Of a stretch of 64,000 nucleotides of DNA, positions 26,303-45,904 are shown in pieces. The notes beneath the pieces are model-generated. The model had not been told where the DNA came from and made no database searches. It saw only the letters and a program-made list of their open reading frames with translations. The first letter of the stretch is position 1, and each line of letters opens with the position of its first letter. A program made the translations under genes and the position numbers. The stretch is from Ignavibacteriota bacterium (GTDB lineage: Bacteria > Bacteroidota > Ignavibacteria > UBA10030 > SZUA-254): NCBI GenBank assembly GCA_963727845.1, contig CAVSHI010000006.1, positions 3,935-67,934 of the forward strand, read 5' to 3'.

Positions 26303-29146
26303 ATGAAACAAACCCGCAACGTTGATTCCTCTTGTTGTGCTGTTTTCCTCCGGAGGATTTCCCTCGGTATATTTATCCTTCTGGCCGGATATGTCTCTTT
26401 TGTGTTCGCAGGCAACACCGGCAAGATTGCCGGCAAAGTGACAGACGCGAAGACGAAAGAGGCGCTGGTTGGAGTGAATGTGATTGTTCAAGGAACGACA
26501 CTGGGCGCCGTGACGAATCTTGACGGTGATTACACAATTCTCAATATTCCTCCCGGCGCGTATACGTTAAAGGCGTCGATCCTGGGATATGACCTCGTGA
26601 CGGTCAATGAGGTCCGGATTTCCATCGACCTGACTACTCGTCAGGACTTTGCGCTGACTGAAACGGTTATGGAACAAAAGGAAGTTGTGATAACAGCACA
26701 GCATCCTCTTGTTCAGAAAGACCTTACTGCGACCACCGCGGTCATCGGGAAGGAGGAGATTGCGGCGCTCCCTGTGACAGAAGTGTCTCAGCTGTTGAAT
26801 CTCAAGGCGGGGTACGTCTCGGGTAGCCTCCGTGGAGGACGTACGGGTGAAGTCGCCTACTGGATCGATGGGGTACCGGTAACGAACGCCTACGACGGAA
26901 GCCAGGTGGTTGAAGTAAACAAGAATATGGTTCAGGAAATGCAGGTCGTTTCCGGCGCGTTCAATGCCGAGTACGGTCAGGCGATGTCGGGTATCGTCAA
27001 CATAGCGACGAAAGAGGGCGAGAGTAAATTTCACGGAGGACTGAGCGGGTATGGCGGGCAATATGCCACGTCATCCGATGCCAATTATGATCAGGAGGGT
27101 CACGAGATTTCAGAGCTCTTCCCGGGGCTCAACCGTTTTCAGCCTACCGCGATCCATGACATCGAGGGCAACCTCAGCGGTCCACTGATTGGAGATGCAT
27201 TGACGTTCTTCGCAAACGCCCGCTATATTTATTTCGGCGGTGATTTTTACGGAATCCGCCGTTTCAATCCTCAAAACGTCGCTTACTTCGACAGCAGCAA
27301 TAATTATCACCTCTATAGAGATCCATCGGGCAAAGGAGACAGCTCATTTGTCCCGATGAACTGGAGCGAACGGTCGTACGCACAGGGCAAGTTGACCTGG
27401 CATATCAATCCTACGCTGAAGCTCACCGGCAATTTCATCTACGACGACGACGTGGCGAAGGCCTACGACCGGACCTATTTTCTCGACCCGGACGGAAAGG
27501 GCAATAACTACAATGTAAGCAATACGTTTATCTTCCAGCTCACGGACATGCTCAGTCCAAGCACGTTTTGCACGCTCGGTGGGTCGTACTTCGACAAGGA
27601 CTTCCAGTACTACCTCTATCAGGATCCGCACGACCCGCGGTATGTGAATCCCGGCGTGGCTATTTCCACGGAGCCGTACAGCTTCCTGACGGGCGGCACG
27701 GATCTCGGGAGGTCTCACCAGGTGACGATCACGAAACTTTTGAAGTTCGACCTCTCGAGCCAGGTCAATCAGAACAATCTCATAAAAGGCGGAGTGGAGT
27801 TTCGCCTGCATCATATCTATGATGAGAATATGACTCTCATCCCGGTGCAATCCGAGGTGGCCTTCAACCGGGTGACGAGCAACCCGTACATCCAGACGGA
27901 AATTCCGGATCTCGGGACGGTAAATCATGATATGTACAATCACAGTCCCGTGGAACTCTCCGGATACATTCAGGACAAGCTTGAGTTCAGTAGTTTCATT
28001 CTGAACATTGGTATCCGGTATGATTATTTTGATCCCAATGCCCTGGTACTCAACGATGCCCATCCGGATCCGAACGACCCTCTTCACCATATGTATACGG
28101 TCGATGACCCGGACATCTATTCCCCTATAACTCCCCAGCACCTGGCGGACAATCTAAGCATGAGGGAGACGTATTGGTATAAGAAAGCCTCGGTCAAGAC
28201 TCAGTTGAGTCCGAGGATAGGCGCATCGTTTCCGATCACGTCCACGGGTGTCGTACACTTTTCGTATGGTCATTTCTTCCAGATCCCCAACTTCCAACGG
28301 CTATATGAAAACCCGCAGTTCGTTCTGGGTCAGGGTACCGGAAACCAGGGCTTGTTTGGGAATGCCGACCTGGCAGCCGAACAAACGACCAACGGTGAGC
28401 TTGGCATACAGGAGCAGGTGGCGGAGGGCCTCTCGATGGACCTGACTGCCTATATTCGCGACATCCGGAATCTTACGAGCTCCAACAGCCAAACGGTCAT
28501 CTACGGTGGCTCCGCGATGTATACGCAGTATCAGAACAGTGATTTCGGGTATGTCAAGGGAGTTGTCCTGACGATGAAGAAAAGGTTCAGCGAAAAATTA
28601 TCGGCCACTTTGGATTACACATACCAGATAGCACGGGGCACGGCCTCCGACCCGACGCAGGCTCGCACGGCCCTTATTGGCGGTGCGCTGCCGGAGGTCC
28701 AGATTGCACCGTTGAACTGGGACCAGCGGCACACCGCGAATGCAACATTGTCCTACGATTCGCATCCGTGGGGGTTCGGTCTTATCGGGCAATACGGCAG
28801 CGGTACTCCATACACGCCGCAAACCATCGCCAGCGACATCAGTACGATCCTGACAAACAGCGAATCGAAGCCGACGTTCTTCGACCTGGACGCACAGGCG
28901 TATTATGAATTCCAGACGCACCCCGTAAAGGTTGTCCTTTTCGCGCGCGTCATCAACCTCCTCGACATACGCAATGAAACCGGCGTGTTCCCCCTGACGG
29001 GAAGGGCGGATTTCACTCCCGAGGAGCAATTAGCGTACTCGACCAATCCCGCCCAGGATGTGAATACTGTCGATCAATACTATCGGTATCCCGACCATTT
29101 TTCCGAGCCAAGACGTATTGAAGTCGGTTTGAATTTTGATTTCTAA
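26303..29146 (+). CDS. TonB-dependent outer-membrane receptor with an N-terminal carboxypeptidase-regulatory-like domain
   Basis: The CarbopepD_reg-like segment is GKIAGKVTDAKTKEALVGVNVIVQGTTLGAVTNLDGDYTI. It is followed by a plug region and a long beta-barrel. TATCTTTG at 26234-26241 is a possible -7 box. Confidence 0.75.
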   Translation: MKQTRNVDSSCCAVFLRRISLGIFILLAGYVSFVFAGNTGKIAGKVTDAKTKEALVGVNVIVQGTTLGAVTNLDGDYTILNIPPGAYTLKASILGYDLVTVNEVRISIDLTTRQDFALTETVMEQKEVVITAQHPLVQKDLTATTAVIGKEEIAALPVTEVSQLLNLKAGYVSGSLRGGRTGEVAYWIDGVPVTNAYDGSQVVEVNKNMVQEMQVVSGAFNAEYGQAMSGIVNIATKEGESKFHGGLSGYGGQYATSSDANYDQEGHEISELFPGLNRFQPTAIHDIEGNLSGPLIGDALTFFANARYIYFGGDFYGIRRFNPQNVAYFDSSNNYHLYRDPSGKGDSSFVPMNWSERSYAQGKLTWHINPTLKLTGNFIYDDDVAKAYDRTYFLDPDGKGNNYNVSNTFIFQLTDMLSPSTFCTLGGSYFDKDFQYYLYQDPHDPRYVNPGVAISTEPYSFLTGGTDLGRSHQVTITKLLKFDLSSQVNQNNLIKGGVEFRLHHIYDENMTLIPVQSEVAFNRVTSNPYIQTEIPDLGTVNHDMYNHSPVELSGYIQDKLEFSSFILNIGIRYDYFDPNALVLNDAHPDPNDPLHHMYTVDDPDIYSPITPQHLADNLSMRETYWYKKASVKTQLSPRIGASFPITSTGVVHFSYGHFFQIPNFQRLYENPQFVLGQGTGNQGLFGNADLAAEQTTNGELGIQEQVAEGLSMDLTAYIRDIRNLTSSNSQTVIYGGSAMYTQYQNSDFGYVKGVVLTMKKRFSEKLSATLDYTYQIARGTASDPTQARTALIGGALPEVQIAPLNWDQRHTANATLSYDSHPWGFGLIGQYGSGTPYTPQTIASDISTILTNSESKPTFFDLDAQAYYEFQTHPVKVVLFARVINLLDIRNETGVFPLTGRADFTPEEQLAYSTNPAQDVNTVDQYYRYPDHFSEPRRIEVGLNFDF

Positions 29147-29152
29147 ATAGAA

Positions 29153-32100
29153 ATGATCAACAGCAAAATACAAATAGTTGCAGCCGCACTTGCCATAGCG
29201 CTCCTGTCGACGCCGGCGTGGACTCAGCAGGGCCAGAGTGGCGCCTCCTATCGAAAAATCAATATTCATAATGCCAACCAGGTCCGAACCGTTTTCGGAA
29301 ACTGGGGTGTTATTGGTCAGCCCTGTAGCGGTGGACCGCGCGGCGCCTGGAGATATGATAATGACGGTTATCTCGGTGATGTGAGTCCGCTTGTAGGCGC
29401 CGAAATCACTTCACAGGGAACGACATTCCATTGTGTTGAGGGCTCTCCTGTCGACCGGCCCACGACGGCGACGGATACGGATCCGCGCACCGGTAAGTAC
29501 TGGACGTTCGAGCCGGTGAATGGTTACAATAATCCGAACGGACAGGTCCTTGCAATGAGCACCGACCCGACCTCCTGGCCGCCCTCTTGGCCCGATAAGG
29601 CCGCCGATCCCCTCGATCCAGGATGGCGAGGAGAGTGGAACGGCTACTTCGGAAAGAACGTCATGAACGCCGACCAGGAAAGCTATTTCGTGATGGACGA
29701 TAACAACAATGACCGTTTCAATTATAGCGTGAACAACTCGTTTAATGTCGCCTTTAAACCGGATTCAACTGACTCTACCAGGAATGGACTGGGGCTGGTC
29801 ATGAGCGTTCGCGGGCTCCAATGGGCGCAGTTCCTTGCAAAGGATAATATTTTCTGGCTGTACGAGATCGACAACACTGGAACGACAAATTACACGAAGG
29901 TCGTTTTCGGGCTGCTTGTGGGTACGTATGTCGGCGTCACGGGGTGCAACGACGCGCCGATGGAGTACGATAACGATTGGTCATTTTATGATGTTCAAAC
30001 CAACCTGACGTACACCGGGAATTATCCGCCCACGCAGATGAAAAATCCCCTCTGGATCGGCAACGTTGGGTTGGTCGGATATGCCTTTCTCGAGAGCCCC
30101 GGGAATCCCTACGACGGCATCGATAACGATGGAGATGCCGACTCAAGTATCACGGGCAAGGCAGCTCCACAATTTCAGGAAAGCGATTTCAGCGACTCAA
30201 CGTTGGTCGTACCGGGCACAAAGCTCATCCTCATCGATACGAACTATGTCCGGAGCATCTATACGGTGCCGAACGTGGATTCGGTTCTCGTCCACACGCG
30301 CGGATTCTCCATGATGCTTTACCCCCATGCCATTCCTTCTCAGTACATCAAACCGGAGGGGAACGTCCTGTACGACGCGGCCCACAATCCATACGTCAAT
30401 CCTAATGCGTATGATGGAGTCGACAACAATTTCAACGGACTCATCGATGAGAATTACTACCTGCATTATCATCAGATCAAGAAAGATCCCAAAACAGGTC
30501 ACGTCCTCATCGATATTCTGCGACCCCTTCGGCACATCAATTACCTTACGGGTGCCGGGAGCGATCCCTATAGTATGATCGACGAACGGCGGGATGACCT
30601 GATCGACAACAACCTCAACTGGAACATTAAGTTCGACGACGTCGGGATCGATGGTGTACCGAATACCGGGGACTACGGGGAAGGGGATGGTCTGCCCACG
30701 TCGGGATATGCACGGCCGCTGTTAAATGAACCGGGTGAGCCGCATGTCGACAAGACGGATGTGGATGAATCGGACCAGATCGGTCTGACGAGTTTCTATT
30801 ACTTTACTCCTGCCAACAATCTTTCCCTTGCCGACAAGGAAGGTCTGTGGAAAGATGTGGCTCCCGGTTATTTCGACGTTCCCACATCGATCGTGAACAA
30901 TAGGCCGCAGGGGGGCGAGGACGGAGACTTCATGTATTCTTCCGGCTATTTCCCGCTCCTGGCCGGCAAGACGGAGCGCTTTTCCCTCGCGCTTGTCTAT
31001 GGAGGACTCACCGATGACATCGATGCAAACCTTGCAGATCTGCTGAAGCACAAAATAACCGTCCAGAACATTTATAATGCAAACTATCAATTTCCGAAAC
31101 CCCCGGACAAGCCCACTGTGACGGCGGTCGCCGGTGACGGACAGGTAACGCTTTATTGGGACAGGAAAGCCGAGCAGACAATCGATGCCGTGCTTCATGT
31201 CAAAACGTTTGAAGGATACAAGATCTATCGCTCGACGGAATCGAACTTCGCCGACATCTTTACGATCACCGATGCGAGCGGGGATCCGGTGGGCTACAAG
31301 CCTCTGGCACAATTCGACCTGAAGGATGGGATCACCGGTTACTTCATCGCTCCGCCGGACCTCTTCCAGGATAACGCCGGGTATACGTACTATCTGGGGA
31401 ACGATACGGGCATTGTCCATACGTATGTCGACAAAACTGTTGAAAACGGTCTAAGATATTTCTACGCTGTGGTTGCATACTCCCGCGGCGACAACACGCT
31501 CGGAATTTTTCCGGCCGAGAATGACAAGTTCGTGAGCATAAACTCTTCCGGAGTGATCACTCATGGCATTAATGTGGCGGTGGTGACTCCCTCGGCCCCT
31601 GTCGCAGGGTATGTGCCCCCGACAACCGCCGTTCCGGTTACACATATAGCCCGCTACGGCACCGGCGAAGTCTATTACAACGTTGTGAATCCATCCACAA
31701 TCATGGGTCATACGTACAGAGTCGAATTTTTCGACACTGAAATTGACAGTGTTGATGCGGCCGGAAACCCGGTCGTGAACACGACCGATTCTACCACATG
31801 GACGCGCCTCACGACGCTGTATTCTGTGAGGGACCTTGCGACAATTTCGGAGAATTTCGTAAGCCTGGACACGGTACTGGTCTATCTCAGCAACCAGAAT
31901 CTGGTCGCCTCGACGGTTGTCGTGAGTGACAGCAGGGGCAACGTCGTGTCCCCTTCGAAATATCACCTCGATGTAACGCGGGGAACGATAAAATCTGCAA
32001 CTCCCGGGAGTCTCCCTGTGGGGAACTACCATGTGTCGTACCAGCATTATCCGGTCTACCGAAGTGCGAACATTCTCGGTTCACCTTTTGTGAACGAAGC

Positions 32101-32974
32101 CAAGGATGCGGATATTTTTGACGGTCTCAAGTTAGGCTTCAACAACGCCTGGAACATCACTGAGATTGATAGTTTGTCGCGTTGGATAGGGCTCAATCCG
32201 TATGTGTTCAGTTTCACTCCGTTGAATATTTCGAACCCCTCGATGCTTGGATACCGGCGGCCGGCGGACTACGAATTTCGGTTCTCCGACCATATTGTAG
32301 ACACATCTGTGGCGAGTACGGCCCTTTTTCTTGGCGCCACTCCGACCAATTTCAGGGTTTATAACTTGACGGAAAGCACCTATGTGAAGTTCTATTTATC
32401 CCAAACTCGTTTCTTCAATAACCAGCTATCCCCCGGGGATGATGTTGTTTTCCTCGAAAAGAGTCCAAGGGGTGACTACGTTCCGACATGGGATGTCCCT
32501 TTTGACAGAAAAGCCAGTGACAAGAACGACTCCGTATACAATTTAACGGTGGGCGATACGCTTCGAATCAGAACAACCAAGCCGTTCCATTACGGCGACA
32601 TCATGGAGTTTACACCGATTTTGCAACGGGTCAGTCAGGATACGGCCAAGAATACTCTTTCCCGCATCAAAGTCGTTCCCAACCCGTACGTGACTGCTTC
32701 CTCCCATGAACTGCCGTTGCCGCCGGGAATTACGAGCGGCCGCGGGGATCGGAGGGTCGAATTTATCCACGTCCCGGCCAGCGCAAAAATACAGATATTT
32801 ACATCCCGGGGAATCCTCGTGCGTACGCTGTACCAGGATGGGAATATTGAAGACGGAACGGTCGTATGGAATCTCAAGACGGATGAGAACCTGGATATCG
32901 CGTTCGGTGTATATTTTTATGTTGTGCAATCCAGCGTGGGATCCAAGACCGGGAAAATCGCGATCATCAAATGA
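29153..32974 (+). CDS. large secreted surface protein (1273 aa) with Ca-binding DxDxDG-type repeats, an Fn3-like domain and a T9SS C-terminal sorting domain
   Basis: It has a signal peptide. The repeats are GIDNDGDAD, DGVDNNFNGLIDEN and DVGIDGVPNTGDYGEGDG. The Fn3-like segment is KPTVTAVAGDGQVTLYWD...GYKIYRST. The C-terminal 100 aa match the T9SS sorting-domain pattern (VVPNPYV...GVYFYVVQ...KIAIIK). Confidence 0.65.
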   Translation: MINSKIQIVAAALAIALLSTPAWTQQGQSGASYRKINIHNANQVRTVFGNWGVIGQPCSGGPRGAWRYDNDGYLGDVSPLVGAEITSQGTTFHCVEGSPVDRPTTATDTDPRTGKYWTFEPVNGYNNPNGQVLAMSTDPTSWPPSWPDKAADPLDPGWRGEWNGYFGKNVMNADQESYFVMDDNNNDRFNYSVNNSFNVAFKPDSTDSTRNGLGLVMSVRGLQWAQFLAKDNIFWLYEIDNTGTTNYTKVVFGLLVGTYVGVTGCNDAPMEYDNDWSFYDVQTNLTYTGNYPPTQMKNPLWIGNVGLVGYAFLESPGNPYDGIDNDGDADSSITGKAAPQFQESDFSDSTLVVPGTKLILIDTNYVRSIYTVPNVDSVLVHTRGFSMMLYPHAIPSQYIKPEGNVLYDAAHNPYVNPNAYDGVDNNFNGLIDENYYLHYHQIKKDPKTGHVLIDILRPLRHINYLTGAGSDPYSMIDERRDDLIDNNLNWNIKFDDVGIDGVPNTGDYGEGDGLPTSGYARPLLNEPGEPHVDKTDVDESDQIGLTSFYYFTPANNLSLADKEGLWKDVAPGYFDVPTSIVNNRPQGGEDGDFMYSSGYFPLLAGKTERFSLALVYGGLTDDIDANLADLLKHKITVQNIYNANYQFPKPPDKPTVTAVAGDGQVTLYWDRKAEQTIDAVLHVKTFEGYKIYRSTESNFADIFTITDASGDPVGYKPLAQFDLKDGITGYFIAPPDLFQDNAGYTYYLGNDTGIVHTYVDKTVENGLRYFYAVVAYSRGDNTLGIFPAENDKFVSINSSGVITHGINVAVVTPSAPVAGYVPPTTAVPVTHIARYGTGEVYYNVVNPSTIMGHTYRVEFFDTEIDSVDAAGNPVVNTTDSTTWTRLTTLYSVRDLATISENFVSLDTVLVYLSNQNLVASTVVVSDSRGNVVSPSKYHLDVTRGTIKSATPGSLPVGNYHVSYQHYPVYRSANILGSPFVNEAKDADIFDGLKLGFNNAWNITEIDSLSRWIGLNPYVFSFTPLNISNPSMLGYRRPADYEFRFSDHIVDTSVASTALFLGATPTNFRVYNLTESTYVKFYLSQTRFFNNQLSPGDDVVFLEKSPRGDYVPTWDVPFDRKASDKNDSVYNLTVGDTLRIRTTKPFHYGDIMEFTPILQRVSQDTAKNTLSRIKVVPNPYVTASSHELPLPPGITSGRGDRRVEFIHVPASAKIQIFTSRGILVRTLYQDGNIEDGTVVWNLKTDENLDIAFGVYFYVVQSSVGSKTGKIAIIK

Positions 32975-32981: not shown

Positions 32982-34016
32982 ATGAATTCGTTCAGACGAG
33001 AAATTGTGCGCATTGCGTTGTTTGCCATGACCCTCTGGATCATTCTGGCAGGAGCGGCGTCCGGCCAATCAAAAGTTGGTACGACGGCGGCACAATTTCT
33101 GGGGATTGCCGTCGGCCCGCGCGCGATAGCCATGGGCGGCGCGAGCGTGGCTTCGGCGGAGGACGTGTCTTCGCTGTACTGGAATCCGGGAGCATTCGCG
33201 CAGGCGGGGAGATCCGAGGTGATGTTCACGAACTGTGAATGGTTGGCAGGCACAAAATTCCGATGGCTGGGATTGATGTACAACCTTGACGGGACCAACG
33301 CAGTGGGGGTGAGTCTCACGCAGCTCGATTACGGCGACGATGAGGTAACGACGACGACGAGCCCGGAAGGAACAGGACTGCGCTGGTCTGCAGAGGATGT
33401 CGCCATAGCCCTTTCCTACTCCCGCCGATTGACGGATATGTTCTCGCTGGGGGGCACAGTCAAGTATGTCGACCAGTCAATCTATAACGAATCGGCGAGC
33501 AGCTTCACATTCGATTTGGGACTTCTGTACGTTACGGACTTCAACGGGTTGCGCCTGGGAATGTCGATGTCGAATTTTGGCGGCGATCTCACGTTGGACG
33601 GTCAGGATTTGTACCAGCCCGTGGACATTGACCCTAACGATCCCGGTGGGAATAAGACCCTCGTCGCCAAGCTGAAAACTGATGCGTTTCCACTGCCGCT
33701 TCTCTTCCGCGTCGGAGTTGCAATGGACGTTGTGAAAACCTCCGATGTAAGGATGACCTTGGCCGCCGACGCGGAACACCCGATTGATGATGTTGAATCG
33801 GTCAATCTGGGCGGCGAGATTGGATGGCATGACATGCTGTTCCTGCGTGGCGGGTATATGTCGCTTTTTGACGTGAATTCACAAGAAGGTCTTACGCTGG
33901 GAGCCGGTGTGAAGTATTCGATGGAGGGCGGCGGTTCGCTTGAAGTGAACTACGCATTCAACAAATTCGGGGTTTTCGATAATCTCAATACGATCGGGCT
34001 TGCAATTGGTTTTTGA
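32982..34016 (+). CDS. PorV/PorQ-family outer-membrane beta-barrel protein (T9SS-associated, FadL-like)
   Basis: It has a signal peptide. The family signature is TTAAQFLGIAVGPRAIAMGGASVASAEDVSSLYWNPGAF. ATG 32982 lies 8 nt past the upstream stop. The upstream 92 codons of ORF 32706-34016 overlap the previous gene and are not coding. Confidence 0.65.
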   Translation: MNSFRREIVRIALFAMTLWIILAGAASGQSKVGTTAAQFLGIAVGPRAIAMGGASVASAEDVSSLYWNPGAFAQAGRSEVMFTNCEWLAGTKFRWLGLMYNLDGTNAVGVSLTQLDYGDDEVTTTTSPEGTGLRWSAEDVAIALSYSRRLTDMFSLGGTVKYVDQSIYNESASSFTFDLGLLYVTDFNGLRLGMSMSNFGGDLTLDGQDLYQPVDIDPNDPGGNKTLVAKLKTDAFPLPLLFRVGVAMDVVKTSDVRMTLAADAEHPIDDVESVNLGGEIGWHDMLFLRGGYMSLFDVNSQEGLTLGAGVKYSMEGGGSLEVNYAFNKFGVFDNLNTIGLAIGF

Positions 34017-36166: not shown

Positions 36167-36184
36167 CATGTAGTTTACCAATGA

Positions 36185-36224
36185 AAGCAAGGCGGGAATC
36201 GTTTCTCGCCTTGCTTTTTTATTC
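36185..36224 (+). terminator. rho-independent terminator (10-bp stem AAGCAAGGCG/CGCCTTGCTT followed by TTTTTT)
   Basis: A perfect inverted repeat and a T-run lie 19 nt after the stop at 36166. Confidence 0.7.
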
Positions 36225-36273
36225 TCCGAGGCCTAACCGGCCATGAGAGAATTTGCCGGGATTCTTTGAGTAC

Positions 36274-39580: not shown

Positions 39581-42500
39581 AAAACTTTGCTCTGCTTATG
39601 ATGTGCCTGGGACTCCAGGTTGCTTATTCCCAGGACAGCGTTGACGTGTATTTCATGTACAAATCTCCATCAAATCCGAGTATCGTGTATCTCCCAGGCG
39701 AATTTAATAACTGGGCGGACAATAACAGCGGGGTAATATATCCCAGTTCACAATGGGACATGACAAAAGATAGTGTTTCGGGGATGTGGTACAAATGGTT
39801 GCGGTTGAAGGTTGGAGGTGGTCCCACGAGTCAGGTTGCCGGCGCCTATCAGTACAAGTTCAATGAGAATGGTTGCTCTACATGCTGGCTGAATGACCCG
39901 CTGAATCAGCATGTCAACAACTCGGACAACAGTAATTCACTTATCTATGTCAAGGATCCTACGATCTTTCACTTCCTTCCGAACCAGCGCCAGCCCATTG
40001 TGAACACCGCAATGCCGGAGATATCGGCGTACATTTTCCCAAAGGTCGGGACATCGGTAGACACGGCATCCATCTCGCTGACGATTGACACGTCCACCTT
40101 CACGAATATGGGATCGGACTATAACTTCAGCACACATCGACTCATTTTCACACTTTCTTCCGCGCTTACGAACGGAAGTCATACGGCGATCCTGTATGCC
40201 CGGTCGCTGGCAGGAGGGGCGAATGCCGATACAGTCGTGTTTTACGTTGAAAGTGGATTTGTGCAGCTGCTCAATCAATCTCCACTCTCGACATGGGAAT
40301 CCAAATGGACGCTTTATGGAAGCGTGAACGACAGTACCATCACATCGGTGAACATAATTCACAACAGCACCGATACGTTCCTGGTCCCGGTAGCCGGAAA
40401 ATCGTTCACATATTCTGCATCCCTTCTGGAGGGTGCGAACGTTTTCTCCGCCGTAACGGACTCAGCTGGATCGCCAAGGGTTTCGGCGCCCGTAACGATT
40501 ATCCGTGAGGTGAATCACTCACCCTGGGCCACCATATCGCTTTCGGATTCAAGCGGCGGAATCCAGTTGAGTGCTCTCTCGAGCAGTGACCCGGATTCAG
40601 GTCAGTCGACGTTGCTCACGTACTCCTGGTCGGTCGACGCTGCAAACCCCTCTGTCATTGCCGGCGTCTCCGGTTCGACCGCGGGTCAGATTTTAGTCTC
40701 CAAACCCTCAATTCCCGGAGAATACTACTTTGGTCTCATAGCCACCGACCCTAACGGCAATAAGGATACGACGAGGAACTACTTCACTGTCAACGGCGAC
40801 GGAACTGTGTCCTATCCAACGCTGGCCAGTAATCCTTCCTGGTTGAATCGGGGCCGGATGTACCTGCTCTTTTTTAAATCGGCCACGGCAGCGGGAACGA
40901 TCAATGCCGCGTTGCCATTGCTCGACTATATCAAGGCCATGGGATACAATATCATCTGGATCATGCCTGTCATGAAGAATGCCTCTCCCATGGATAACCT
41001 GTACGGGACGGGATACAACATCGTTGATTTTTACAACGTCGCTCCGGAATACGGTTCAAATGTAGATTTCCAGAACTTTGTAGCAAGAGCGCACCAGCTG
41101 GGCATTCGAGTGATTCAGGATATCACTCCGAATCATACCAGCTCGATGCATCCGTTCGCCGGCGACATCCAGAACTTTCGGAAGAGCTCGAGGTACTGGA
41201 ATTTCTATGAGCATCAGCTCATCACGAATCCGAACTACCACCCCGACCTTACGGAGGGGTACACGGATGACAGCCTGTTCGTAGTATACTCTGCCTTCGG
41301 CGACATGCTGTTAAACTACAACTGGTCCGACCTCGATGCCCGCAAGTACATGATCGGTGTGTACAAGTGGTGGGTGAAAGAAATGGGCGTCGACGGCTTT
41401 CGCTTCGACGTTTATTGGGGACCGCACAGCCGGGCAGACGGCGGCAATGGCGGTGAGGATGAAATGGGACAGCCGGTGCGCGCGGCACTCAAGCACATCA
41501 AGCCCGACATATTTATCCTCGGAGAAACGGACGGTACCGGCATTGGCACGGAGGTCAATTATGGCGACCGGAACGGCGGTATCGACGCGGGCTATGACTG
41601 GAATCTGTTCCATAATGGCATTCAAAATTTCTATTCATCCGGTCCTCAGATCAGTGCGCTGAATTTCTACCTTCTCAACGGCGGCTCGACAACCATGGGT
41701 TTTGAGCCGGGGCCGAATGCATACTTCATGCGATTCCTGGAAGACCAGGATGAAGACCGTATCGCTTACGTCTACGGCTCACTTGCGAAGACGATGCCGG
41801 TGTCGACCATTGTGCTGACCTCTGTGGGGATTCCCCTGGTCTATTCGGGGCAGGAGCTCGGTTGGGGGCTCGGAATACCGGGCGCGAAAGAGGCGCGCAG
41901 CCGCAGCGTGATCGACTGGAACTACAGCGGGAAATCGACTCTCCAGCCGCATTATCAGAAGCTCGCCCAGATACGATCCCTGTTTTCTCCGCTCTGGACG
42001 CAACAGCAAATCAGCGTGAGTACGGGCAACGGTTTTGTCATGGGCTATACACGGCCCTTGAATGACCTGAACTGCATCGTACTTGCGAATTTTGATGCCA
42101 GTTCGCACATGTCGAGCGTTGCTCTCACGGTGGGTGGAACACCGAACGTGTTCTTCTCTCATGGCGTGGTGAACGGCCGCACGTACTACGCCAGCGACCT
42201 TTACAATGACACTGTGTACGATGTCACGTTCAACGCGGGGTCGGCGACGCTTTCCGTGAACCTTCAGGCATACGGCTCGGCCGTCATCGTACTTGACGAA
42301 ACGACGCACACACTGCTTCTTCCACCAATCACAGATGTGAAAACATCGGGGGTCGGCGTTCCCCGGCAATTTGCACTGTACCAGAATTATCCCAATCCGT
42401 TCAATCCGACGACAACAGTGTCATTTGCGATTAGTCATTCGTCATTTGTGACACTCAAGGTGTATGATGTATTGGGGCGGGAAGTCACCGCACTTGTGAA

Positions 42501-42627
42501 TGAGGTAAAGCAACCCGGCGAATACACTGTTAGGTGGAATGCGGAAGGGGTCGCAAGCGGCGTGTACTTCTACCAGCTCACATCGGACAATGCCCGGCTC
42601 ATGCGGAAAATGCTGCTTATCCGTTAA
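39577..42627 (+). CDS. GH13 alpha-amylase with an N-terminal Ig/CBM-like region and a T9SS C-terminal sorting domain
   Basis: Its ATGA start overlaps the upstream stop, and it has a signal peptide. The GH13 core is YNIIWIMPV ... region I DITPNHTS ... GVDGFRFDV ... ILGETDG. The C-terminus is FALYQNYPNPFNPTTTVSF...GVYFYQL...RKMLLIR. Confidence 0.85.
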   Translation: MKNFALLMMCLGLQVAYSQDSVDVYFMYKSPSNPSIVYLPGEFNNWADNNSGVIYPSSQWDMTKDSVSGMWYKWLRLKVGGGPTSQVAGAYQYKFNENGCSTCWLNDPLNQHVNNSDNSNSLIYVKDPTIFHFLPNQRQPIVNTAMPEISAYIFPKVGTSVDTASISLTIDTSTFTNMGSDYNFSTHRLIFTLSSALTNGSHTAILYARSLAGGANADTVVFYVESGFVQLLNQSPLSTWESKWTLYGSVNDSTITSVNIIHNSTDTFLVPVAGKSFTYSASLLEGANVFSAVTDSAGSPRVSAPVTIIREVNHSPWATISLSDSSGGIQLSALSSSDPDSGQSTLLTYSWSVDAANPSVIAGVSGSTAGQILVSKPSIPGEYYFGLIATDPNGNKDTTRNYFTVNGDGTVSYPTLASNPSWLNRGRMYLLFFKSATAAGTINAALPLLDYIKAMGYNIIWIMPVMKNASPMDNLYGTGYNIVDFYNVAPEYGSNVDFQNFVARAHQLGIRVIQDITPNHTSSMHPFAGDIQNFRKSSRYWNFYEHQLITNPNYHPDLTEGYTDDSLFVVYSAFGDMLLNYNWSDLDARKYMIGVYKWWVKEMGVDGFRFDVYWGPHSRADGGNGGEDEMGQPVRAALKHIKPDIFILGETDGTGIGTEVNYGDRNGGIDAGYDWNLFHNGIQNFYSSGPQISALNFYLLNGGSTTMGFEPGPNAYFMRFLEDQDEDRIAYVYGSLAKTMPVSTIVLTSVGIPLVYSGQELGWGLGIPGAKEARSRSVIDWNYSGKSTLQPHYQKLAQIRSLFSPLWTQQQISVSTGNGFVMGYTRPLNDLNCIVLANFDASSHMSSVALTVGGTPNVFFSHGVVNGRTYYASDLYNDTVYDVTFNAGSATLSVNLQAYGSAVIVLDETTHTLLLPPITDVKTSGVGVPRQFALYQNYPNPFNPTTTVSFAISHSSFVTLKVYDVLGREVTALVNEVKQPGEYTVRWNAEGVASGVYFYQLTSDNARLMRKMLLIR

Positions 42628-42644
42628 TCGTCCGACGCTTTCAC

Positions 42645-43898
42645 TTGTCTGCGAAGATTACATCTTGCCACGTTTCCGGACCCCTCAAGGGACTTCTCTT
42701 TCTCCTTGTGATAGTTTCGCTGAACGCCTGCACGCGCCACGTTGACCCGCATCGGATTGTCATCTGGCATCAGATGCGCGTGGACGAGCGCGAGATTCTC
42801 GAAGACCAGATGAACCAATTCATGAAACTCCACCCCGATGTCCGAGTTGAGGCCGTCTACAAGGAGACCGAAGAATTGCGTTCCGGCTTCATTGTTGCCG
42901 CGATTGCAGGCCAGGGCCCCGATTTGGTGTACGGTCCATCCGACCAGGTCGGCCCGTTCCAGGTAATGAACATCATCGTTCCTCTGGACACTCTTTTTGA
43001 AAAAGCGTGGCTGGATTCATTTAATCCCAAGGCGCTGACGTGGTACAAGGGACATCTCTACCAGATTGCCGATAAGCTGGGGAATCATCTTACGCTTGTG
43101 TACAACAGGAAAATTGTCCAGAAACCGCCCGAGACGGATGTCGAGCTGATCGATCTGTGCAAGAAGCTCATGGTGTATAAAGACGGCAAGGTTGAGCGGT
43201 ACGGTTTGGTCTGGAATTACACCGAGCCCTACTTCTACATACCGTTCCTGAGCGGTTTCGGGGGATGGGTGATGAATGACAGCGGCGTCCCGACGCTTAA
43301 CTCTGAGAGCAATATCGAAGGATTACAGTTTATCAAGGATCTCCGCGACAAGTACCAGATCATTCCTGCCGAAGCCGATTACAACGTCGCGGATGCGCTT
43401 TTCAAAGACGGGAAAGCGGCAATGATCATCAACGGTGATTGGTCCTGGTCGGGATACCGGAAATCGGGAATCGACATCGGGGTCGCGCCGCTTCCGAAAA
43501 TCAGCAAGACCGGTCTGTGGTGTGCGCCGATGATTTCTCCGAAGGGATATTCGATCAACATCAATGTCCCCAGGGAAAAACTCCCGTTGATTGTGGAGTT
43601 CCTGAAATTCATGATGCAACCGGAGATTCAATTGCAGACGGCGAAGGCGCTCACAACAATGCCGACGCGGACGTCGCTCTACGACGATCCGTTCATCAAA
43701 AACGACGACATTCTCATCAATTCGGAGAAACAAATCGAGCGGGGCAGACCGATGCCGGTTGTGCCTGAATTGCGCGCAATCTGGGATGCGATGAGGCCCA
43801 GTTACCAGGCCGTCCTTGGCGGTGCGATAACGCCGCGGCAGGCCGCTTATGACATGCAGATCACGGCAATACGAAAGATCGCGGAGATGAATGAGTAG
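42645..43898 (+). CDS. malE: maltose/maltodextrin-type ABC transporter substrate-binding lipoprotein (MalE-like, SBP family 1)
   Basis: It has a lipoprotein signal (LLFLLVIVSLNAC). The fold is family-1 SBP-like across the protein. The likely start is TTG 42645 in frame; the earlier part of ORF 42534-43898 overlaps the previous gene. Confidence 0.7.
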   Translation: MSAKITSCHVSGPLKGLLFLLVIVSLNACTRHVDPHRIVIWHQMRVDEREILEDQMNQFMKLHPDVRVEAVYKETEELRSGFIVAAIAGQGPDLVYGPSDQVGPFQVMNIIVPLDTLFEKAWLDSFNPKALTWYKGHLYQIADKLGNHLTLVYNRKIVQKPPETDVELIDLCKKLMVYKDGKVERYGLVWNYTEPYFYIPFLSGFGGWVMNDSGVPTLNSESNIEGLQFIKDLRDKYQIIPAEADYNVADALFKDGKAAMIINGDWSWSGYRKSGIDIGVAPLPKISKTGLWCAPMISPKGYSININVPREKLPLIVEFLKFMMQPEIQLQTAKALTTMPTRTSLYDDPFIKNDDILINSEKQIERGRPMPVVPELRAIWDAMRPSYQAVLGGAITPRQAAYDMQITAIRKIAEMNE

Positions 43899-44118
43899 TT
43901 AGGTCGTTGAATAGTTGGGTAGTTAAGTAGTTGAGATAAAGAGATGCCAGAACATTTTTTAATTTTTCATTTTTAATTTTGAATTGTTAGCAAAAAGCTC
44001 AAGGCCAGAACCAGGAACTAATGACCTATGAATAATGAGCAACGAGTAAAGCCAAATGACTAATGACCGATAACGAAGAACCAAGAACCAATAACCAAGA
44101 ACGCTTCTTCACAATGAC
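43899..44118. repeat. AT-rich low-complexity spacer between malE and malF, with a 15-bp tandem direct repeat (CATTTTTTAATTTTT / CATTTTTAATTTTGA) and reiterated TAGTT and AACCAAGAAC motifs
   Basis: The repeats are visible in the sequence. The composition contrasts with the flanking GC-rich DNA. Confidence 0.5.
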
Positions 44119-45012
44119 ATGAACAGAGTGTACCGAAATATTTTCATAGTGTTGTTTGTCGCGCCGGCGTTCCTTATCCTTTTCGGGGTCGTGTTCTATC
44201 CGTTTCTGTACAACGTCGTTATCTCCTTTTCCAATATGAACCTGAGCCATATCAAGGATTGGCATCTCATCGGGTTCAAACAATACGCCAAGGTGTTTAC
44301 GGAGACCACGGAACCGAATTTTTATCAAATTTTCGTCAAGACGATCATCTGGACGGTGGTGAATGTTTTGTTCCATGTCGTGTTCGGCGTTTTCCTTGCG
44401 CTGCTGCTGAATCAGAAGATCCGAGGCCGATCGGTGTACCGGACGCTCCTAATCCTGCCATGGGCGATTCCACAGTACATTGTTGCATTGACGTGGCGCG
44501 GAATGTTCAATTATGAGTACGGTTCCATTAATCTCGTCATCACAAAATATCTTCATTTGCCTGCGGTAGAATGGCTCAAGAGTCCGACCGAGGCATTTCT
44601 CGCCTGCATTTTCACAAATGTCTGGCTCGGCTTTCCGTTTATGATGGTTGTTGCGCTCGGGGCGCTCCAGAGTATCCCGCATGAATTGTATGAGGCCGCG
44701 GATATTGACGGGGCTTCCTGGTATCACAAATTGCGCAACATAACGCTTCCTCTCATTCGGCCTGTCATGGTCCCGGCAATCACGCTGGGGATCGTGTGGA
44801 CGTTCAATAATCTGAATATCGTTTGGCTGGTCAGCAATGCCGGCGAACCGTCCGACAAGACGCACATTCTCGTCTCATTTGTGTACAAAGCCGCATTCAA
44901 TCTGTACCGGTACGGGTATGCAGCGGCAATGTCGATGGTTATATTCTTCATTCTCCTGATCTTCAGTGTGGCATTCATGCGAAAAGCACGGGCCACGGAG
45001 GCGGCGTACTGA
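44119..45012 (+). CDS. malF: carbohydrate ABC transporter permease (MalF-like)
   Basis: It has six TM segments. The ABC permease EAA-like loop is ALQSIPHELYEAADIDGASWYHKLRNITLPLIRP. Confidence 0.8.
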   Translation: MNRVYRNIFIVLFVAPAFLILFGVVFYPFLYNVVISFSNMNLSHIKDWHLIGFKQYAKVFTETTEPNFYQIFVKTIIWTVVNVLFHVVFGVFLALLLNQKIRGRSVYRTLLILPWAIPQYIVALTWRGMFNYEYGSINLVITKYLHLPAVEWLKSPTEAFLACIFTNVWLGFPFMMVVALGALQSIPHELYEAADIDGASWYHKLRNITLPLIRPVMVPAITLGIVWTFNNLNIVWLVSNAGEPSDKTHILVSFVYKAAFNLYRYGYAAAMSMVIFFILLIFSVAFMRKARATEAAY

Positions 45013-45061
45013 TGATCTCGGATTGTGGAATGAGGATTGTGGATTACAAGAACTGACGAAG

Positions 45062-45904
45062 ATGAAAGCGAGAAAAATAAAAAGGCTCTCTGTCAGGATA
45101 CTGACGCACATTATCCTTCTTGTGTTTGTTGTTATCGCGGTCTATCCCGTGCTTCAGGTCGTGACGATTTCTTTGCGCCCTACGGATAAACTCCTCTCGA
45201 CCTCCCTGGAGATCATTCCCCGCGGGGCGACACTGAGATCCTACGTGTCGCTCTTTACCGAACGGCCGTTCCTTCTCTGGGTAAGCAACAGCGCGCTCGT
45301 ATCCGTTACCGTCACGCTCACCGGAGTCATCTTGGCGGCGATGGCCGGCTACGCATTTTCCCGGTTCAGCTTCATCGGCAAGAGGGCGGGATTGTTGAGC
45401 CTGCTCGTCACACAGATGTTTCCTGCCACGATGCTGCTGCTGCCGCTGTACATTATGTTGATTTACTTCGGGTTGATCAACACCTATTTCGGCTTAATCG
45501 TCACGTACACGGCGACGGCGCTTCCATTTTGCATCTGGACGATGAAGGGATACTACGATACGATTCCAACAAGCCTCGAAGAAGCCGCCCGCATTGACGG
45601 GTGCAATCAATTCCAGGCATTCTACAAGATCATTTTGCCGCTCGCGGCCCCGGCACTGGTGATCACCGGGTTGTTTTCGTTCATGACGGCGTGGTCGGAG
45701 TACATCGTTGCAGCTCAGATATTGCAGGATTCGGCGTTGTGGACTCTTCCGCTCGGGCTGAAGTCGTTTGAGTCCAACATGTCGACCGAGTGGGGATTGT
45801 ACGGTGCGGCATCCCTCGTTGTGATGGTTCCGGTGGTTGTTCTGTTTCTTGTCCTGAGCCGGTGGCTGGTTTCCGGACTCACGCTCGGGAGCGTAAAGGG
45901 GTAG
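45062..45904 (+). CDS. malG: carbohydrate ABC transporter permease (MalG-like)
   Basis: ATG 45062 (MKARKIKRLS) is preferred. The EAA motif is LEEAARIDGCNQFQAFYKIILPLAAP. Confidence 0.8.
   Translation: MKARKIKRLSVRILTHIILLVFVVIAVYPVLQVVTISLRPTDKLLSTSLEIIPRGATLRSYVSLFTERPFLLWVSNSALVSVTVTLTGVILAAMAGYAFSRFSFIGKRAGLLSLLVTQMFPATMLLLPLYIMLIYFGLINTYFGLIVTYTATALPFCIWTMKGYYDTIPTSLEEAARIDGCNQFQAFYKIILPLAAPALVITGLFSFMTAWSEYIVAAQILQDSALWTLPLGLKSFESNMSTEWGLYGAASLVVMVPVVVLFLVLSRWLVSGLTLGSVKG

Follow-up and report, generated by a model that had tools for sequence, protein, structure and literature searches.

Introduction

Several described systems are close to the locus reported here. The Sus system of Bacteroides thetaiotaomicron (SusCDEFG plus SusA/B) includes SusD, an alpha-helical TPR lipoprotein, and E. 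coli has a maltose system formed by LamB, MalE-MalFGK2 and MalS/MalZ. In the T9SS, cognate PorV-like barrels retain uncleaved C-terminal domains (CTDs), as in PorQ-PorZ, PorV-PorU and PorP/SprF with type-B cargo such as SprB, in such pairs the CTD being bound by the barrel and the genes usually clustered (PMC10202324). In a further pair, accessory to the BAM of Bacteroidota, the 14-stranded FadL/PorV-like barrel BamG anchors the large extracellular protein BamH through loops (PMC12578637).

Here we describe a starch-utilisation gene cluster, real and conserved across phyla, at positions 26303-45904 of the window (the whole 64-kb stretch of DNA analysed). Its core seems to represent a general alternative to the Sus system of Bacteroides, one for which no description was found in the literature searched. 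We consider it reasonably probable that the locus constitutes an alpha-glucan utilisation system of an Ignavibacteriota-like FCB member, built on a conserved generic outer-membrane module other than SusC/SusD, in which a large surface protein that we call BIG is the partner of a TonB-dependent receptor (TBDR). The distinct, non-Sus alpha-glucan system put forward in a preliminary description of this DNA is thus supported, as SusD is not found adjacent, the gene order is kept and CTD matches are present.

Gene content and transcription units

The locus is a co-directional block on the + strand with ten genes, instead of the twelve first described, and the ORFs number eleven only through the split of a PPIase gene at a G7 run. 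The gene order is TBDR, BIG, a PorV/PorQ-family barrel, a CBM20-CTD protein, the PPIase, a GH13, a GH13-CTD protein, MalE, MalF and MalG, and six of the predicted products have exact matches in databases. From 5' to 3' the intergenic gaps are 6, 7, 122, 86, 12, -4, 41, 220 and 49 bp, in such a way that two of them (122 and 220 bp) exceed the maximum of 100 bp previously given; the spacing of 6 and 7 bp within the core of three genes agrees with coupled expression. An intrinsic-terminator-like hairpin (36183-36218, + strand), with a 16-bp stem followed by a T run, separates the block of outer-membrane genes from the one downstream, and a near-identical hairpin is kept at the equivalent position (17025-17058) of an 85%-identical relative, L087. 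Therefore, the co-directional block stands as described, but the hairpin argues against a single operon, and the locus probably comprises two transcription units. No regulator gene was found within the locus, nor core T9SS genes within the 64-kb window; GH77, pullulanase and glycogen genes are located elsewhere in the window, near the locus.

The TonB-dependent receptor and the absence of SusD

The TBDR (947 aa; 26303-29146, + strand) comprises a signal peptide and an N-terminal carboxypeptidase-regulatory-like domain, followed by plug and barrel. Its early assignment was confirmed by matches to PF13715 and PF13620 at aa 42-130 and to PF07715 (Plug) at aa 138-230, and by NCBIfam TIGR01785 and FepA-type models over the barrel. 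Its score with the SusC/RagA model TIGR04056 is 71 bits (cutoff 368), the match being limited to aa 41-241, so the protein is below the curated threshold for that family, and no SusC structure appears among its PDB sequence matches.

As had been claimed, no SusD-like lipoprotein is encoded here: none of the locus proteins gives a Pfam or NCBIfam match to SusD, and the gaps are too small to house its gene. A SusD family match is also absent from the seven related loci that bear Pfam annotation (0/7). Moreover, TBDR and BIG are direct neighbours in 72 of 74 loci, as are BIG and the PorV-like gene in 68 of 69, leaving no space at the canonical SusD position; a SusD adjacent in other genomes was accordingly not found. 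The proposed replacement of SusC/SusD thus holds for SusD and for lipoprotein anchoring, but not for SusC, whose role would be kept by the TBDR as importer.

BIG, a large beta-rich putative surface protein

BIG (1273 aa; 29153-32974, + strand) starts 6 bp past the TBDR stop and is a secreted, beta-rich protein with a Sec signal peptide, not a lipoprotein. It showed no Pfam or NCBIfam match, its C-terminus reaching only CHU_C with E = 0.016, and no sequence relative in the PDB. More than 2000 homologues exist, every one of them named "hypothetical", and the family of the N-terminal half alone amounts to 721 clusters at 50% identity. AF2 models gave a pLDDT of 81.6 and a pTM of 0.83 for this half, and a pLDDT of 84.4 for the C-terminal one.

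The N-terminal half (aa 25-655; 29225-31117, + strand) consists of a galactose-mutarotase-like "supersandwich" domain followed by a DxDxDG-type motif region. Such domains occur N-terminally in GH15, GH65 and GH94 enzymes, and BIG might be read as a carbohydrate-active enzyme of the cell surface or a non-catalytic remnant of one, its supersandwich being the N-domain of a novel glycoside hydrolase/phosphorylase-like protein. We find this quite unlikely, since the BIG models contain no (alpha/alpha)6 or other catalytic domain, the remainder being beta-sandwiches and loops, and the invariant Asp/Asn residues sit in DxDxDG-type motifs (GIDNDGDAD, DGVDNNFNGLIDEN, DERRDDLIDNN and DDVGIDG), which are typical of Ca2+ sites and presumably bind Ca2+ here. 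In addition, the scaffold is conserved beside unrelated glycan specificities, which is unexpected for a single-substrate active site. Such strong conservation of the N-terminal half between paralogues serving different glycans is easier to reconcile with a structural part in a complex than with recognition of a specific glycan, a point against our preferred reading of BIG as a glycan-capturing partner of the TBDR.

The N-terminal half is followed by a Fn3-like domain (roughly aa 648-815; 31094-31600, + strand) and a variable beta-sandwich insert (roughly aa 890-1010; 31820-32182, + strand), the latter modelled with a pLDDT of ~95 over most of its length (C-half residues 251-330). The insert, the only clearly variable one, is found in most starch-locus BIGs and is largely missing from the paralogues at other CAZyme loci, with gap fractions of 0.62-0.82 in these paralogues, 0.70 in Kryptonia and 0.61 in loci L069 and L077. 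Its absence from the starch-locus BIGs of Kryptonia and of two divergent Marinimicrobia counts against our preferred reading.

The last domain (aa 1171-1273; 32663-32971, + strand) is a T9SS type-A-like CTD, although a divergent one. It contains two inserts that are conserved and specific to the family, namely a GRGxR loop following the PNP motif and 5 aa ahead of GVYFY. It lies below all curated HMM thresholds (Pfam, NCBIfam), and its homology to type-A CTDs was detected by hhalign (97.4%, E = 1.2e-11) and by motif alignment; a BIG sister subfamily of ~950 aa bears a canonical Por_Secre_tail. The conservation of this CTD equals that of the best-conserved parts of BIG, unlike a disposable signal. 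The initial view of BIG as T9SS-sorted is therefore sustained by these alignments and not by any Pfam or NCBIfam match. Likewise, of the CTDs assigned to every surface component, those of two proteins are above the TIGR04183 cutoff, and that of BIG emerges through profile-profile comparison only.

The PorV/PorQ-family barrel

The third core gene, 7 bp past the BIG stop, encodes a FadL-like outer-membrane beta-barrel of the PorV/PorQ family (344 aa; 32982-34016, + strand). The likeness to PorV/PorQ noticed at the outset was corroborated by NF033709 (203 bits, cutoff 90) and by F. johnsoniae PorV (PDB 6h3i_F, E = 1e-10), along with PF19572 PorV (E = 2e-11). The barrel missed the cutoffs of the equivalogue models for both PorQ (101 against 220 bits) and PorV (79 against 250 bits), the PorQ score being the highest among specific models. 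Its gene adjoins that of BIG also in 5/5 paralogous loci, and two copies occur within 12 kb in locus L013. We propose that this barrel is the cognate anchor of BIG.

Starch-binding protein, chaperone, enzymes and ABC transporter

The next gene encodes a surface starch-binding protein (675 aa; 34139-36166, + strand) with a signal peptide, three tandem CBM20-like modules, an unrelated fourth beta module and a T9SS type-A CTD, matching PF00686 CBM20 (E = 8e-7), PF18962 (E = 6.5e-11) and TIGR04183 (49 bits, cutoff 23). As for the several CBMs attributed to this T9SS-sorted protein, modules 1-3 are mutually homologous (hhalign 98.7, 94.4 and 89.5%), unlike module 4, and module 1 alone reaches the Pfam CBM20 threshold.

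The SurA-like chaperone already recognised is a SurA/PrsA-like parvulin PPIase, a periplasmic chaperone (36253-38089, + strand; PF00639, PF13145). Its gene is frameshifted in this assembly at the G7 run near 37760-37766, which gives ORFs 36253-37815 and 37706-38089; the latter holds the last ~105 aa and matches the C-termini of the orthologues, which are single ORFs of 603-630 aa.

Two GH13 proteins follow, both as anticipated. The periplasmic one (492 aa; 38102-39580, + strand) has a signal peptide, matches PF00128 with E = 7e-76 and resembles maltodextrin glucosidase, cyclomaltodextrinase and neopullulanase, with 361 bits for NF008051 MalZ and 345 bits for NF041090, both under the equivalogue cutoffs. 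The second is a surface alpha-amylase (1016 aa; 39577-42627, + strand) composed of N-terminal beta modules, a GH13 catalytic domain (PF00128, E = 8.5e-38) and a T9SS type-A CTD (PF18962, E = 5.9e-10; TIGR04183, 42.6 bits), its N-terminal modules being weakly CBM48-like (AMPK1_CBM, E = 0.021), Ig-like and PKD (27.6 bits). A flanking esterase shows a sub-threshold CBM48-like match (E = 8e-4). Glucan-binding modules had been assigned to four proteins, a count that found little support, as outside the CBM20 protein we detected only these two sub-threshold CBM48-like matches.

Finally, the locus encodes a MalE-like solute-binding protein (409 aa; 42669-43898, + strand; PF13416, PF01547) with a possible lipobox (LNAC) and 142 bits for NF007011 MalE (cutoff 291), a MalF-like permease (297 aa; 44119-45012, + strand; PF00528; NF008232, 184 bits, cutoff 392) and a MalG-like permease (280 aa; 45062-45904, + strand; PF00528; NF008231, 178 bits, cutoff 261). 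All three homologues of the MalE-F-G-like transporter are thus present at 42669-45904 as reported, but no ABC ATPase is encoded in the locus, the gene after MalG being a convergent esterase.

Conservation and reuse of the module

Synteny was analysed in a set of 80 loci/genomes from Ignavibacteriota, KSB1, Gemmatimonadota, Marinimicrobia, Calditrichota and Kryptonia. The TBDR gene lies directly upstream of BIG in the 72 of 74 loci already mentioned, a CBM20-CTD homologue is found downstream of the TBDR-BIG-PorV-like triad in 47/48, a GH13 within 10 kb in 27/39 and the PPIase downstream in 21/39. The gene order was not lost among relatives, as TBDR, BIG, PorV-like, CBM20-CTD, (PPIase), GH13 is kept in at least six phylum-level lineages, and L087 shows the identical order, its MalE-like gene following likewise. 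Next to the module, MalEFG was seen only in this close relative and in a single locus from Marinimicrobia, but the flanks were limited to 10 kb, which hides most cases.

These data bear on whether the adjacency lacks mechanistic meaning, ordinary starch genes merely having as neighbours a T9SS barrel and a conserved surface protein unrelated to them. The hairpin that divides the locus and the variable presence of PPIase, GH13 and MalEFG in the available flanks would fit such a picture, which is nevertheless strongly disfavoured by synteny and to us highly improbable: about 97-99% of loci, which represent at least six phylum-level lineages, keep the TBDR-BIG-PorV-like order, the CBM20 protein comes next in 47/48, and the whole module is duplicated and reused beside other sets of CAZymes and regulators.

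Five such paralogous TBDR+BIG+PorV-like modules were found, three of them with a SurA-like gene (E from 1e-23 to 1e-35). Their identities fall in similar ranges (TBDR 34-37%, BIG 36-40%, PorV-like 38-43%), indicating that the modules diverge in parallel. Their neighbours include GH43 together with rhamnose genes and AraC; GH97, CBM4_9 and a GH71/99-like CTD protein along with a hybrid two-component regulator; GH5 with a GH39-CTD protein, a Malectin-CTD protein and an ABC transporter; and LacI. CE2 also occurs among them. Since paralogous copies adjoin other CAZymes and regulators, the TBDR, BIG and PorV-like core, frequently joined by a SurA-like gene, is not specific to starch but constitutes a generic module of PUL-like type.

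CTD-bearing CAZymes are encoded at nearly all paralogous loci, the BIG scaffold is conserved whatever the neighbouring CAZymes, and PorQ is the best specific model for the barrel (101 bits), all of which would suit a locus-specific T9SS attachment device, PorZ/PorQ-like, in which BIG and the barrel anchor their own CTD enzymes and binding proteins near the TBDR, BIG not being the glycan-binding partner of the transporter. We regard this as rather unlikely, because BIG resembles PorZ only weakly (TM about 0.15), and only in the beta-sandwich and CTD parts, with no beta-propellers in BIG, and because the strict adjacency and tight spacing are with the TBDR and not with CTD cargo genes, which points to transport. 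Furthermore, the BIG-barrel pair is multi-copy, whereas a general attachment complex is normally single-copy.

Proposed mechanism

In our preferred reading, with BIG as partner of the TBDR, the 3xCBM20 protein would bind starch at the cell surface and the 1016-aa GH13 would cut it, these two proteins being presumably exported by the T9SS and attached through their canonical type-A CTDs. Maltooligosaccharides would pass to the TBDR, whose extracellular partner would be BIG, itself exported by the T9SS, with its divergent CTD retained, and anchored to the outer membrane through the PorV/PorQ-like barrel, much as PorZ is by PorQ and SprB by SprF. BIG would take the place of SusD as a glycan-capturing or lid component; from genomics and models we infer a BIG-barrel-TBDR complex, glycan binding by BIG and a function of BIG, with the TBDR, as counterpart of SusD. 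The SurA-like PPIase would chaperone components of the module in the periplasm, where the 492-aa GH13 may trim the imported dextrins, and MalEFG with an ATPase encoded elsewhere would import the products into the cytoplasm. Points against this reading are the hairpin that parts the outer-membrane genes from those for the enzymes and the ABC transporter, the PPIase frameshift, the lack of ATPase and regulator in the locus, the sub-threshold HMM scores of the BIG CTD, the absence of core T9SS genes from the window and the few loci with MalEFG next to the module within the 10-kb flanks.

Comparison with known systems

As Sus does, the locus combines surface starch-binding proteins, a surface GH13 amylase and a periplasmic GH13 with a TonB-dependent importer that has an N-terminal carboxypeptidase-regulatory-like domain and a partner gene immediately downstream, the 675-aa CBM20-CTD protein, the 492-aa GH13 and the 1016-aa GH13 being the counterparts of SusE/SusF, SusA and SusG, respectively. 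As in Sus-like PULs, paralogous modules are found next to other CAZymes and to regulators of the hybrid two-component, LacI or AraC type. Unlike in Sus, the gene at the SusD position encodes a 1273-aa all-beta protein and no SusD/RagB, the TBDR misses the SusC/RagA model (71 bits against 368), the surface proteins bear Sec signals together with T9SS CTDs in place of lipoprotein anchors, the core includes a PorV/PorQ-like barrel and a SurA-like chaperone, and the inner-membrane step corresponds to a MalEFG-type ABC transporter.

The E. coli maltose system shares the MalE/F/G homologues and a MalZ- or cyclomaltodextrinase-like GH13, but its outer-membrane step is the LamB porin, in contrast to an energised TBDR with surface accessory proteins here; besides, MalK is missing from the locus and all its Mal homologues are under the equivalogue cutoffs.

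With respect to the T9SS barrel pairs, the barrel gene similarly adjoins that of a large CTD-bearing surface protein, whose CTD is unusually well conserved, has family-specific inserts and is putatively retained. However, the known pairs take part in secretion, attachment or gliding and not in the import of nutrients, no TonB-dependent receptor is coupled to any of them, and the barrel described here is neither a PorV or PorQ equivalogue nor a PorP/SprF protein. BamG-BamH differs in belonging to an outer-membrane protein biogenesis machine and in the lack of a CTD in BamH, whereas the use of a FadL-like barrel as membrane anchor for an extracellular partner would be common to both.

Gene Content and Transcriptional Organization

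The alpha-glucan locus (26303-45904) consists of ten long genes, all on the + strand, and not of the twelve counted in the preliminary description; the starts chosen agree exactly with the database gene calls for six of the products. The first gene (26303-29146) encodes a TonB-dependent receptor (TBDR) of 947 aa, with CarboxypepD_reg and Plug domains and NCBIfam barrel matches. It is followed by the gene of a secreted protein of 1273 aa without any Pfam or NCBIfam match, here called BIG (29153-32974), and, 7 bp further on, by that of a PorV/PorQ-family barrel (32982-34016). The remaining genes code for a 675-aa protein with CBM20 (Pfam) and a type-A C-terminal domain (CTD) of a type IX secretion system (T9SS) (34139-36166), a SurA-like parvulin PPIase with a Pfam match (36253 onward), a 492-aa GH13 protein with a signal peptide, similar to MalZ and cyclomaltodextrinases (38102-39580; PF00128, E = 7.4e-76), a 1016-aa GH13 protein with a T9SS CTD (39577-42627; PF00128, E = 8.5e-38), and homologues of MalE, MalF and MalG with Pfam and NCBIfam matches (42669-45904). 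The co-localization of two GH13 genes with a protein bearing three CBM20-like modules is kept across phyla.

The successive genes are separated by 6, 7, 122, 86, 12, -4, 41, 220 and 49 bp, two of the gaps exceeding the 100 bp formerly given as their maximum. The reading of the locus as a single operon was also abandoned because a strong intrinsic-terminator-like hairpin, with a 16-bp stem and a T run, lies at 36183-36218 between the genes of the CBM20-CTD protein and the PPIase, and is kept nearly base for base in an 85%-identical relative (L087, 17025-17058). This conserved hairpin after the fourth gene makes two transcription units, or attenuation, more likely than one operon, as far as can be judged from the sequence. 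A scan for sigma-70 promoters was uninformative (24 sites for 17.7 expected, with a model that may not fit this lineage), and no match to a riboswitch or leader came from Rfam over the entire window. At a G7 run near 37760 (37755-37770) a frameshift divides the PPIase gene in two, and the ORF at 37706-38089 matches the C-termini of PPIase orthologues of 603-630 aa, all of them intact single genes; the interruption may reflect either faulty assembly or a true pseudogene.

The 675-aa protein had been credited with several CBMs. Its modules 1-3 are mutually homologous (hhalign 98.7, 94.4 and 89.5%), module 1 being the sole one that reaches the Pfam CBM20 threshold, and module 4 is unrelated to them. 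The broader proposal of glucan-binding modules in four proteins holds for this one, the CBM48-like signals in the N-terminus of the GH13-CTD protein and in a flanking esterase being sub-threshold. Its type-A CTD reaches 49.1 bits with TIGR04183 (cutoff of 23), and that of the 1016-aa GH13 protein, also above the cutoff, 42.6 bits. Judged by eye, BIG, the CBM20 protein and the GH13-CTD protein start with what look like Sec signals lacking the canonical lipobox Cys, and the latter two surface proteins carry T9SS CTDs instead of a lipobox. In agreement with the original claim that a SusD-like lipoprotein is missing, none of the proteins of the locus gave a SusD-family match in Pfam or NCBIfam, there is no room for such a gene, and seven Pfam-annotated related loci likewise gave no SusD-family match.

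The window as a whole, of even composition (around 52% GC), is an alpha-glucan neighbourhood. Directly after the MalG gene, a convergent gene (45908-47101, - strand) encodes a putative esterase (PF00756) with an N-terminus that resembles CBM48/AMPK glycogen-binding domains below threshold. Genes for PFK, GlgC (51246-52535) and GlgA (52560-54119) are found downstream of the locus, together with those of a CBM48+GH13 pullulanase (54125-56191), a GH77 MalQ (56231-57760) and a 921-aa GH13 protein (58677-61442), these three on the - strand; the block from 51246 to 61442 also holds a 382-aa protein without family match. Upstream, positions 36-13668 are occupied by an unrelated glycosidase cluster (a GH78 rhamnosidase, two proteins of GH123 type, a DUF5107/TPR protein and an NPCBM+GH27 alpha-galactosidase), interrupted by a fragment of a Mutator-family transposase (10536-11405, - strand). 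Between 16154 and 23503 are encoded a CBM9-containing 765-aa protein (- strand), a 964-aa TMEM260-like putative protein O-mannosyltransferase, MsrB and a 434-aa protein without family; the last three, and an S46 peptidase also located upstream of the locus, are syntenic in L087. No core T9SS gene (SprA/Sov, PorK/L/M/N, PorU, PorV) was found within the 64 kb of the window.

Family Assignment of the Receptor, the Barrel and the ABC Transporter

The TBDR reaches 71.3 bits with the SusC/RagA model TIGR04056, whose cutoff is 368, through a match confined to aa 41-241, and no SusC structure appeared among its PDB sequence matches. The barrel is a PorV/PorQ-family member by NF033709 (203.1 bits for a cutoff of 90) and PF19572 (E = 2.3e-11), and it matches PorV from F. 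johnsoniae (PDB 6h3i_F, E = 1.1e-10), with scores below the equivalogue cutoffs for PorV (NF033710, 78.6 of 250 bits), PorQ (NF033711, 100.8 of 220) and PorV2 (NF052325, 75.4 of 325). Its gene is multi-copy, and every copy adjoins a BIG paralogue. The MalE, MalF and MalG homologues also score below their equivalogue cutoffs (142 of 291, 184 of 392 and 178 of 261 bits, respectively), and the locus has no ABC ATPase gene. The evidence supports naming them a CUT1-type sugar ABC system.

The BIG Protein and Its C-Terminal Domain

More than 2000 homologues of BIG, with 55-62% identity over the full length, are all named "hypothetical" and have no Pfam domains, and its N-terminal half, compared with 1.84 billion representatives, defines 721 clusters at 50% identity, 247 of which have E <= 1e-30. 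A search for a cultured carrier through the homologues of an orthologue from a Caldithrix MAG returned matches that were all "hypothetical proteins" of MAGs; growth on starch is known for the cultured Caldithrix abyssi (PMC5317091). BIG, searched whole or as four sub-segments against Pfam and NCBIfam, gave no more than a sub-threshold match to CHU_C, and a PDB search with the family profile found no solved structure related by sequence.

AlphaFold2 models of the N-terminal half (pLDDT 81.6, pTM 0.83) and of the C-terminal half (pLDDT 84.4, pTM 0.79) are confident and both almost wholly beta. In the first, a supersandwich precedes loops that carry invariant motifs of DxDxDG type, which are putative Ca2+ sites; the second contains an Fn3 domain and further beta-sandwiches. 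An enzymatic role for BIG seems quite improbable; the model of the N-terminal half lacks an (alpha/alpha)6 catalytic domain.

It had been proposed that every surface component carries a T9SS CTD. This was verified with curated models for the CBM20 and GH13 proteins, and the last 100 aa or so of BIG remain below all such models (best match CHU_C, E = 0.016, 15.7 bits). Nevertheless, profiles built from the C-termini of 218 members of the BIG family and from 83 CTDs of type A encoded in the same loci match each other in hhalign with 97.4% probability (E = 1.2e-11), with PNP, GVYFY and K..IIK motifs common to both and two inserts specific to the BIG family, one of them a GRGxR loop. In two proteins of the family (P0459 and P0514) the precomputed Pfam annotation reaches PF13585 (CHU_C, a T9SS signal domain), so the divergent CTD is detectable by HMM in some lineages. 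Few parts of BIG are as well conserved as this CTD, which is at a level similar to that of the Fn3 core and clearly above that of the preceding beta-sandwich region; such conservation would be unexpected for a disposable signal. We infer that it could remain uncleaved and bound to the barrel.

A sister subfamily of around 950 aa (L088 1026-3884; L089 994-3837) combines the N-terminal domain of BIG with a canonical Por_Secre_tail; in these two contigs of around 4 kb each, no TBDR gene lies directly upstream, and the upstream gene is on the opposite strand. The one clearly variable insert of BIG (aa 890-1010, approximately) was considered as a starch-specificity module, an idea weakened by its absence from the starch loci of Kryptonia and from two of Marinimicrobia. 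Together with the conservation of the scaffold whatever the neighbouring CAZymes, this counts against a SusD-like reading of BIG; its specific recognition of glycans is only putative, and it may have a chiefly architectural role.

Synteny across Genomes

A scan of a genome collection yielded 80 loci, in Ignavibacteriota, KSB1, Gemmatimonadota, Neomarinimicrobiota/Fidelibacterota, Calditrichota and Kryptonia, the closest relatives being MAGs labelled as Ignavibacteriota or Bacteroidota. Genes were counted by tblastn with the ten window proteins, taking as denominator the loci whose contig extends far enough to test. The gene order is preserved among relatives: the PorV-like gene lies directly 3' of BIG in 68 of 69 loci, the TBDR gene directly 5' of it in 72 of 74, and a homologue of the CBM20-CTD protein is encoded downstream in 47 of 48. 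That the adjacency of these genes is meaningless is barely credible before such figures, with so few loci departing from the order. It is also unlikely that BIG and the barrel form just a locus-specific attachment device of the PorZ/PorQ kind; the almost constant presence of the receptor gene beside them points to transport. A GH13 gene was found inside the 10-kb flanks in 27/39 loci and the PPIase gene downstream in 21/39, and MalEFG inside the flank in 1/39, a low number attributable to the flank limit, since the MalE gene of the window begins 9.7 kb past the end of BIG. In L087, the gene order is the same as far as MalE, with an intact PPIase gene.

Paralogous Modules at Other Loci

A complete MAG chromosome (L013/L086) carries a second, divergent pair of BIG and PorV-like genes (L013 11-3027, equal to L086 1-3021), located around 4 kb 5' of the receptor gene of the starch module, with GH77 and a LacI regulator between them; a GH57+CBM20 gene is found after the starch module in L013. 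The family of this upstream BIG (around 1120-1150 aa) gave 522 matches, and in the five contigs examined TBDR, BIG paralogue and PorV-like genes appear in the same order. Their neighbours are GH43, AraC, rhamnose catabolism and CBM9-CTD and GDSL-CTD proteins in L081; a hybrid two-component regulator (Reg_prop/Y_Y_Y/HisKA/RR/AraC), GH97, CBM4_9 and a GH71/99-like CTD protein in L082; a complete ABC transporter, Malectin-CTD, GH39-CTD and GH5 in L083; LacI and a second TBDR variant in L084; and LacI, CE2 and a beta-helix CTD protein in L085. After the LacI gene of L084, the stretch 17519-23420 encodes a TBDR of 1064 aa and then proteins of 713 and 340 aa without Pfam match, which may be a smaller version of the same module.

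Identities to the window copies are 34-37% for the TBDR, 36-40% for BIG and 38-43% for the PorV-like barrel, a parallel divergence of the three core proteins that duplication of the entire module would be expected to produce. SurA-like genes missed by Pfam were further revealed, with a PPIase orthologue profile, in three of these five loci (1e-23 to 1e-35), so that the core is often a tetrad. On these sequence grounds, the TBDR, BIG and PorV-like core appears to be generic and not confined to starch.

Proposed Mechanism and Significance

We propose that the CBM20 and GH13 proteins with CTDs would be T9SS cargo that binds and cuts starch on the cell surface. BIG would also be exported by the T9SS, keeping its specialised CTD and docking through it on the adjacent PorV/PorQ-like barrel, and the pair would stand beside the TBDR with an extracellular capture or lid function, as SusD does for SusC. 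The SurA-like protein would act as chaperone of the module components, the periplasmic GH13 would trim dextrins, and MalEFG would import the products using an ATPase encoded elsewhere. Taken as a whole, we regard this mechanism as rather probable. Our confidence is high that the alpha-glucan locus is conserved and that its TBDR, BIG and PorV-like core is generic, and moderate in a complex of retained CTD, barrel and TBDR. What the sequences show is the gene content, the folds, the homology of the CTD, a gene order that is conserved with tight spacing, and the re-use of the module; we read the locus as one case of a PUL-like architecture that is widespread, unannotated, independent of SusD and tied to the T9SS. 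More tentatively, and with slightly less than even weight, the core, with or without the SurA-like chaperone, might be an undescribed and widespread outer-membrane glycan-import machine of Ignavibacteriota, KSB1, Calditrichota, Marinimicrobia/Fidelibacterota, Gemmatimonadota and Kryptonia, in which a T9SS-delivered protein, held by its own PorV-like barrel via a retained specialised CTD, takes the role of SusD.

The preliminary observation is thus confirmed in part, and its interpretation as a distinct alpha-glucan system that is not a Sus system is supported and extended, the SusD, gene-order and CTD-HMM checks having all come out in its favour. If the complex exists, type IX secretion would be physically coupled to TonB-dependent uptake, in a second, SusD-independent PUL paradigm and with a new structural answer for TonB-dependent polymer acquisition without SusD, and the barrel and BIG could be the first cognate pair of PorV-like barrel and CTD for nutrient import, not for secretion or gliding. 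The module also bears on the evolution of Sus-like systems in the FCB superphylum. It is present in hundreds of sequence clusters from several poorly studied phyla that abound in the ocean and in soils, sediments and aquifers, where its recognition would provide a marker for predicting glycan use, and its central protein of 1100-1300 aa is annotated as "hypothetical" everywhere. Even with a wrong model of the complex, a well-conserved alpha-glucan locus with a large uncharacterised protein family worth study would be left.

Comparison with Known Systems

No description of a module of TBDR, PorV-like barrel and large CTD protein was found in the literature searched (full text, with most subscription journals outside the coverage), and an earlier description elsewhere is possible. 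PUL prediction, in PULDB and similar resources, is keyed on the susC/susD tandem, which makes such loci invisible to it. Melioribacter is reported to have a canonical SusCDE operon (Mros0758-0764), and PULDB lists tandems of susC and susD for some of the Ignavibacteriae and Gemmatimonadetes, so that in these groups the architecture is a parallel system and not merely a stand-in for Sus.

The MalE, MalF and MalG homologues differ from the MalEFGK2 importer in their sub-cutoff scores and in the absence of MalK. As for the barrel, it shares a family with PorV and PorQ and is the equivalogue of neither. In known systems, the CTD of PorZ is retained and bound by PorQ, that of PorU is bound by PorV, and PorP/SprF proteins from neighbouring genes anchor cargo with type-B CTDs (PMC10202324), and in the BAM complex of Bacteroidota a FadL-like barrel anchors an extracellular partner (PMC12578637). 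These cases are precedents for the docking proposed for BIG. The clustering of a barrel gene with its CTD partner, as in PorQ-PorZ-type pairs, is found here in nearly all the orthologous loci and in 5/5 paralogous ones.

With Sus-type PULs the locus shares a functional likeness, with co-localised CAZymes and surface glycan-binding proteins, whereas its receptor misses the SusC model, SusD is lacking and the surface proteins do not look like lipoproteins. The slot directly after the transporter gene, where SusD would be encoded, is taken by BIG, all-beta in the AlphaFold2 models, and the probable counterparts of SusE/F and SusG would be the CTD protein with three CBM20-like modules and the GH13-CTD protein, respectively.
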